Source of the DNA: a virus
UHGV virus genome: UHGV-0175782
DNA length: 60,645 nt
Reading direction: 5' to 3' (one strand)
Shown: positions 46,259 to 46,269 of the stretch, piece after piece
Layout of the letters: the number at the start of each line of letters is the position of its first letter
How positions within the stretch are numbered: position 1 is the stretch's first letter
Position numbers and translations under genes: made by a program
Notes under the pieces: generated by a model
What the model was told of the DNA's origin: nothing
What the model saw: only the letters and a program-made list of their open reading frames with translations
Databases searched by the model: none

Positions 46259-46269
46259 AACAAGTGACT
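46259..46269 (+). promoter_or_regulatory. Candidate late-promoter element AACAAGTGACT (within partial dyad ttaacaagtgactagtgttaa) upstream of prt, divergent from darB
   Basis: Related copies upstream of the structural operon (12159-12172), lyz (49994-50002), pacA (29563-29572) and mat (36567-36576). Confidence 0.35.

Follow-up and report, generated by a model that had tools for sequence, protein, structure and literature searches.

Analysis of the virus genome UHGV-0175782, the whole 60,645-nucleotide stretch of which is referred to here as the window, leaves us all but certain that a short element recurring upstream of its late genes marks Lpa-dependent late promoters in a phage/plasmid of the P1 type, with the element standing in place of a -35 region and lying 4 nt upstream of the -10 hexamer. 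On the sequence evidence, this late-promoter element is a box of 11–12 bp, rAC-AAGTGACTt, and includes the 9-bp imperfect inverted repeat already published, AAGTnACTT, whose centre is near -22. The sites look functional, their function being carried over from P1 by sequence identity, and late promoters of this type are already known and annotated in P1; as such they are an ordinary feature of the genome. The minor additions made here are that an AC flank is conserved and that this lineage has lost LPhot, together with an unannotated site within gene 7 and a different box in phage D6.

Relationship to P1 and inventory of late promoters

The window is a P1-like (Punavirus) genome, with 94–99% identity to P1, P7 and SJ46, and the DNA around the promoter LPpro is 98–99% identical to that of P1, P7, SJ46, RCS47 and other Punavirus genomes. 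When mapped onto P1 (AF234172.1) by BLAST, the window spans P1 position 66335 through the lox site, found at 33891/33892 in the window, to approximately P1 position 31836, and it is colinear with P1 apart from a few swapped segments.

The P1 GenBank record lists 11 late promoters (LPmat, LPpro, LPlyz, LPdar, LPs, LPsit, LP23, LP26, LPpmgL, LPhot and LPpac), of which LPpro is annotated in P7 (AF503408.1) as well. In each annotated promoter, a 9-bp '-22 region' (AAGTnACTT-like) is separated by a 4-nt gap from a -10 hexamer (TAnnnT). For seven of the 11, the window contains an exact copy of the 19-bp feature. The late promoters of P1 and P7, which are served by Lpa (gp10) together with host SspA, represent the same system as those described here and occupy the same gene contexts; the sole differences from P1 are that LPs, LPsit and LP23 lie beyond the part of P1 represented in the window, and that LPhot has been lost.

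A preliminary description of the window had noted the motif upstream of prt, the baseplate/tail operon, lyz, pacA and mat and had interpreted these occurrences as candidate Lpa-dependent late promoters. The interpretation and the gene assignments both agree with the P1 annotation, each of the five sites being the '-22 region' of an annotated late promoter (AF234172.1/AF234173.1), namely LPpro, LP26, LPlyz, LPpac and LPmat. The list was nevertheless incomplete, LPdar and LPpmgL having been missed, and the limits of the elements are corrected in what follows. For the comparison with published P1 late promoters that it had called for, the consensus was taken from the GenBank feature tables and PMC10695390.

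LPpro (46259–46280, plus strand) is the late promoter of prt-pro (portal, head processing) and is identical to the annotated LPpro of P1 (P1 17251–17269), the exact copy of the 19-bp feature occupying 46262–46280. The motif had been located at 46259–46269, where the plus strand indeed reads AACAAGTGACT; the 13-mer AACAAGTGACTAG is found as an exact match at 46259–46271. The promoter can be divided into an AAC flank (46259–46261), the -22 box AAGTGACTA (46262–46270), the gap (46271–46274) and the -10 hexamer TAAATT (46275–46280), and it is situated between the divergent genes darB (start 46247, minus strand) and prt (TTG start 46323, plus strand), which are separated by 75 bp. At LPpro there is no -35 match at 15–19 nt and a simple sigma-70 scan gives no -35/-10 pair; the only site found by the scan in this region is PdarB-like and has the opposite orientation.

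LP26 (12151–12172, minus strand) is the late promoter of the baseplate/tail operon 26-25-7-24-6-5. The motif reported at 12159–12172 reads AACAAATGACTAGC on the minus strand, and the promoter is made up of the -10 hexamer TAGAAT (12151–12156), the box AAATGACTA (12161–12169) and the AAC flank (12170–12172), with the exact 19-bp copy at 12151–12169. The ATG of gene 26 lies 29 nt downstream of the -10. The LP26 box is reused in the opposite orientation, as TAGTCATTT, by the annotated divergent promoter LPpmgL (12161–12179, plus strand; an exact 19-bp copy of P1), the -10 hexamer of which is AATATT at 12174–12179. LPpmgL is non-canonical in that the AC flank is missing, and its status derives from annotation only, the support from sequence being weak.

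The remaining sites can be described in similar terms. LPpac (29562–29583, plus strand; exact 19-bp copy at 29565–29583), the late promoter of the packaging genes pacA-pacB, has the sequence GAC ATGTGACTT tcgt TACCCT and is followed by the pacA GTG start at 29620; the variant motif assigned to 29563–29572 reads ACATGTGACT on the plus strand. LPmat (36566–36587, plus strand; exact 19-bp copy at 36569–36587), the late promoter of mat, has the sequence GAC AAGTGACTT cagt CAGAAT, and the variant assigned to 36567–36576 reads ACAAGTGACT on the plus strand. Its -10 hexamer is shared with a predicted sigma-70 promoter, Pmat, annotated in P1, for which a TTGACA hexamer is present 19 nt upstream. LPlyz (49981–50002, minus strand; exact 19-bp copy at 49981–49999) serves the lysis genes lyz-lydD-lydE and has the sequence AAC AAGTGATTT gcat TATCCT, with the lyz ATG at 49893; the motif given at 49994–50002, for which no strand had been specified, reads AACAAGTGA on the minus strand. 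LPdar (59213–59234, minus strand; exact 19-bp copy at 59213–59231) is the late promoter of lydA-lydB-hdf-darA-ddrA-ddrB and has the sequence GAG AAGTTACTT tgca TACCAT, the lydA GTG start lying 28 nt downstream. Taken over 26, pacA, mat (at its P1-annotated start), prt, lyz and lydA, the gene starts are situated 20–88 nt downstream of the -10 hexamers.

The mat reading frame as annotated in P1 (ATG at window position 36607) is frameshifted in the window after approximately codon 35 (36607–36720), and the open reading frame that reaches the mat stop codon begins with a GTG at 36690. In the Cronobacter phage JK004 there is likewise an indel in this stretch. From the frameshift and the indel, the real mat start may be downstream of that annotated, preceded by a conserved untranslated leader.

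A search of the window for LPhot found no usable form of the promoter, the -10 hexamer having been replaced together with the hot gene. Its absence is explained by the exchange of the hot segment (25085–25931 in the window) for a segment of the P7/SJ46 type at 25104–25931, which carries a upf93.6-like open reading frame (25558–25914, minus strand). A degenerate relic of the LPhot box can be discerned near 25086–25097.

Conservation in related phages

A 22-nt weight matrix was built from nine canonical P1 late promoters and used to scan relatives of P1. The Lpa protein of JK004 is 67% identical, and the JK004 record is annotated only with 'hypothetical protein'. The scan of this genome gave nine matches scoring 14 bits or more, where 0.16 would be expected, and eight of these are directly upstream of orthologues of R/S, pmgC-tub, 23, 26, mat, pacA, prt and lyz. 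In alignments of the intergenic regions of the window and JK004, the box and the -10 hexamer stand out as conserved islands amid diverged DNA, most clearly at LP26, LPmat, LPpac and LPlyz, while the JK004 counterpart of LPdar is degenerate (2.4 bits). JK004 and related IMG/VR contigs, which are unannotated relatives of P1, have the same box, the same 4-nt gap and -10 hexamer and the same operons served; individual boxes differ by one to three bases.

Phage D6 has the same genome architecture and an Lpa homologue, here only 31.5% identical, and again a conserved box close to the -10 hexamer, but the box, AAATCACAnACTGA, is different from that of the window and nearer to the -10. No P1-type boxes were found when D6 was scanned with the P1 matrix. 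The D6 box is shared by five late operons (prt, lydA, R, pmgB and a lysis gene), upstream of which it is found beside the -10 at positions 19215, 25228, 31518, 38122 and 45498 of the D6 sequence. There are six matches to it against 1.33 expected, five of them intergenic and correctly oriented. The retention of the box in JK004 and its alteration in D6 suggest that activator and box change together, and an altered box where the activator is altered is what recognition by Lpa predicts.

A further match to the matrix, with a score of 22.0 bits, is present inside gene 7 (10446–10467, minus strand; AAC AAGTGACTG gtga TAACCT), where it overlaps codons 16–23. The site is found in P1 at 76780–76801 and is without annotation in the P1 and P7 records. 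It is invariant in some 150 near-identical IMG/VR contigs; in four diverged relatives, however, it falls to 1–9 bits while LP26 is kept at 17–28 bits. The comparison serves as an internal control, by which the intergenic boxes are maintained by selection and the coding site in gene 7 is not. We therefore do not count the gene-7 site as a twelfth late promoter, its decay in the diverged relatives marking it as probably fortuitous or lineage-specific, and the existence of a 22-bit match within a gene means that sequence alone does not prove a promoter.

The activator Lpa and the late switch

The gene for the late promoter activator, lpa (29081–29533, plus strand), is intact in the window and encodes a protein of 150 amino acids, 149 of which are identical to those of P1 Lpa. 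The protein matches Pfam PF25716 (BPP1_LPA) with E = 2.3e-57 and PHROG 1704, 'Lpa-like transcriptional activator'; a sequence search returned no PDB entry for its structure. Upstream, at 28994–29035 (plus strand), lies Olpa/Plpa, a C1 operator overlapping a sigma-70 promoter, in an exact copy of P1 89904–89945. Because Olpa overlaps Plpa, lpa, and through it the late regulon, would be under the control of the prophage repressor. With the late switch from C1 to lpa to the late promoters intact in sequence, the element is unlikely to be a decayed plasmid and probably functions as a phage.

The following scheme can be put together from the literature on P1, in which late transcription, its dependence on Lpa and SspA, and the binding of Lpa to the box are described (PMC10695390 and PMC8198154, with the relevant passages of PMC1891329). 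In a lysogen, C1 repressor bound at Olpa would keep lpa silent. Upon induction or infection, RNA polymerase containing sigma-70 would transcribe lpa from Plpa, and Lpa would then bind the box. Together with SspA, a host protein associated with RNA polymerase, it would allow the sigma-70 holoenzyme to start at promoters that have no -35 element, switching on the packaging genes pacAB, the head genes prt-pro and mat, the tail and baseplate genes of the 26 operon, the lysis genes lyz and lydAB, and the dar genes. In those passages of PMC1891329 that cite Hansen et al. 2003, Lpa is presented as a sequence-specific DNA-binding activator thought to act via direct contact with host SspA, and SspA as a co-activator that forms a bridge from Lpa to RNA polymerase without binding late promoter DNA itself. 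Transcription of lyz depends on, and follows, lpa (PMC8198154). In the sigma-70 holoenzyme, SspA is bound to the beta' zinc-binding domain and to sigma region 4 (PMC7515715), and we infer that an SspA dimer placed between these two elements, near the spacer DNA, would fit an activator site near -22.

Architecture of the element

The six canonical sites in the window each carry the 9-bp imperfect inverted repeat, with boxes identical to the annotated P1 boxes, and the gap between the box and the -10 hexamer is 4 nt in all six. The -10 hexamers are TAAATT, TAGAAT, TACCCT, CAGAAT, TATCCT and TACCAT. At the usual distance of 15–19 nt, the best match to TTGACA is two or three positions out of six in five of these promoters, the exception being LPmat, which overlaps Pmat. 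LPpmgL, and in P1 also LPhot, deviate from the canonical layout. The consensus for 17 sites from P1 and JK004 is rAC AAGTGACTt N4 TAnaaT. Immediately 5' of the annotated 9-bp box, A is present in 17 of the 17 sites and C in 16, a degree of conservation that matches that of the box itself. As the AC flank is conserved as strongly as the box, the longer word AACAAGTGACT is a fair description of the conserved block.

The asymmetry that this flank confers on the element raises the question of whether sigma-70 reads part of it. It is conceivable, if unlikely, that the element is asymmetric, extending over some 12 bp as (TT)rAC-AAGTGACTt with a 5' part that imitates a -35 region, that Lpa/SspA re-aims sigma-70 region 4 rather than simply recruiting polymerase, and that the gene-7 site is a twelfth late promoter boosting genes 24-6-5. 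We consider it very unlikely that the block is, as opposed to an Lpa site alone, at least in part a displaced -35-like element, its 5' edge TTrACA being read by sigma-70 region 4 at a distance of 12 nt, instead of 17 nt, from the -10, with Lpa/SspA remodelling the holoenzyme for the short spacing. The hexamer 12 nt upstream of the -10 does match TTGACA at four to six of the six positions in all six canonical promoters, and the near-invariance of the AC beyond the annotated box accords with such an element. A 12-nt spacer is, however, at odds with the standard geometry of the holoenzyme. The contact of SspA with sigma-70 region 4 (PMC7515715) is a further point in its favour, to be set against the recognition of the box in P1, which is ascribed to Lpa (PMC10695390; likewise in the part of PMC1891329 concerned with P1). 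What leads us to rate the displaced -35 element low is that its two T positions are weakly conserved (0.6–0.7 bit of information) and that in D6 the whole box changes along with Lpa, which favours recognition by the activator.

Frequency of the element relative to chance

Our preferred reading, that the sites are Lpa-dependent late promoters, was set against the frequency with which the element would recur by chance. The outcome depends on how strictly the element is defined. When three mismatches are permitted, the 13-mer gives 20 matches in the window against 12.2 expected, a weak enrichment since 20 is reached in four of 100 shuffles. With at most one mismatch there are three matches against 0.05 expected, and the pattern ACAWRTKAYTW-N4-TANNNT gives four against 0.04. 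The weight matrix gives seven matches of at least 20 bits against 0.013 expected from 300 dinucleotide-preserving shuffles. This last count is partly circular because six of the seven strong matches are copies of sites from which the matrix was trained; in leave-one-out scoring the training sites reach 13–26 bits, the mean best score in shuffled sequence being 11.8 bits. Six of the seven strong matches are in short intergenic gaps upstream of late operons and oriented towards them.

Equal frequency inside coding regions had been named in the preliminary description as evidence against a promoter element. This is not what is found: six of the 12 matches to the 10-mer ACAAGTGACT with at most one mismatch are outside long open reading frames, in DNA that makes up 11.8% of the window (binomial P = 1.3e-3). 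That the other half of these matches are in coding DNA, that the 13-mer with three mismatches is barely in excess, and that one strong full-length match falls in gene 7 and is not conserved in relatives are what might be expected if a short A/T-G-rich word simply recurred without function. Against this, the near-exact and spacing-constrained forms are 60- to 500-fold above chance, the sites lie between genes in the right orientation and match curated promoters exactly, and they are kept in JK004 while their flanks diverge. From the statistics, the positions and the conservation, we regard chance as effectively refuted.

Motif discovery in intergenic DNA, also called for in the preliminary description, was approximated by word enrichment in place of MEME, using exact 8-mers and 9-mers with one mismatch. 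The late box is recovered, though modestly (P of about 5e-4 to 9e-4), since it is too degenerate for this approach, and the C1 operator comes first. The operator (ATTGCTCTAAT-like; for example at 28994–29010 and in the region 49981–50070) shows the strongest enrichment of any intergenic word in the window, with 9–10 of the 10–11 copies of its core 8-mers being intergenic, across 6–7 gaps. C1 operators are annotated near several late promoters in P1 (O26, Omat and Ossb), but it is extremely improbable that C1 or some other P1 regulator binds the word in place of the late activator, given that the operator is a different, ATTGCTCTAATAAATTT-like sequence recovered separately as the top intergenic word, that the published operators are annotated at other positions, and that the late box lies at a fixed 4-nt distance from the -10, as expected of a promoter element.

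Comparison with other activator systems

Positive control of late operons from promoters that lack a good -35 region is familiar from Mu C, P2 Ogr and P4 Delta, and T4 gp55-gp33. The activator sites are upstream of -30 for Mu C and near -55 for Ogr/Delta, and T4 uses a modified -10 only. To our knowledge, only the P1 group has a box centred at -22, within the spacer. Staphylococcal RinA similarly exerts positive control over late morphogenesis and lysis operons whose promoters have no good -35 (PMC3152322). In all of these systems, RinA included, the proteins are unrelated to Lpa and the sites are placed differently. In the MglA-SspA-PigR system of Francisella, as in P1, a DNA-bound activator works via an SspA-family protein bound to RNA polymerase, and P1 Lpa/SspA has been cited as a precedent for it (PMC1891329). 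However, the Francisella activator is unrelated, the DNA element is another one, and the regulon comprises cellular virulence genes rather than phage late genes.

For the window itself, the sites mark the late regulon of a P1-like element and have little significance beyond annotation. The comparison of JK004 with D6 provides a minor but clear-cut case of joint change in an activator and its DNA box, and defined natural variants of the box could assist structural work on how a box at -22 acts through SspA.

Weaker matches and segments exchanged relative to P1

Three further matches were considered as promoters and set aside. The box at 25331–25340 (minus strand) has no -10 hexamer at the right distance. 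The match at 23102–23123 (plus strand; 14.3 bits) overlaps the ATG of an open reading frame in an insert not found in P1, and its -10 is without the final T. The match at 58901–58922 (minus strand; AAC GAGTGAATA tcga TAGCAT) is weaker than the accepted sites, at 16.9 bits, a score for which 0.08 matches are expected per window, and lies within lydA. It is also present in P1, at 30900–30921, and is some 40 nt upstream of the start of lydB (antiholin), to which, judged by position, it could give a late start of its own.

The segments in which the window departs from P1 include 18246–23753, a 5.5-kb stretch not present in P1 that takes the place of part of the pmgT region. Among its genes are one for a PAPS-reductase-like protein (18736–19614; PADLOC SspD, 1.8e-13), two for Ead/Ea22-like proteins (20675–21385 and 21988–22674) and several open reading frames without a family match. 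At 60003–60530 there is a cin-like invertase region, 70% identical to P1 cin and inverted in orientation relative to P1, and the IS1 and isaB of P1 are missing from the window at the 52215/52247 junction. In the segment 37359–38760, where P1 has its EcoPI res-mod genes, the window carries instead a single open reading frame (37415–38719, plus strand) encoding a SIR2-like protein of 434 amino acids, which matches Pfam SIR2_2 (1.6e-23) and, in PADLOC, PDC-S25 (5e-24) and ThsA (7e-18). This gene is a candidate one-gene anti-phage defence occupying the restriction-modification slot of P1.
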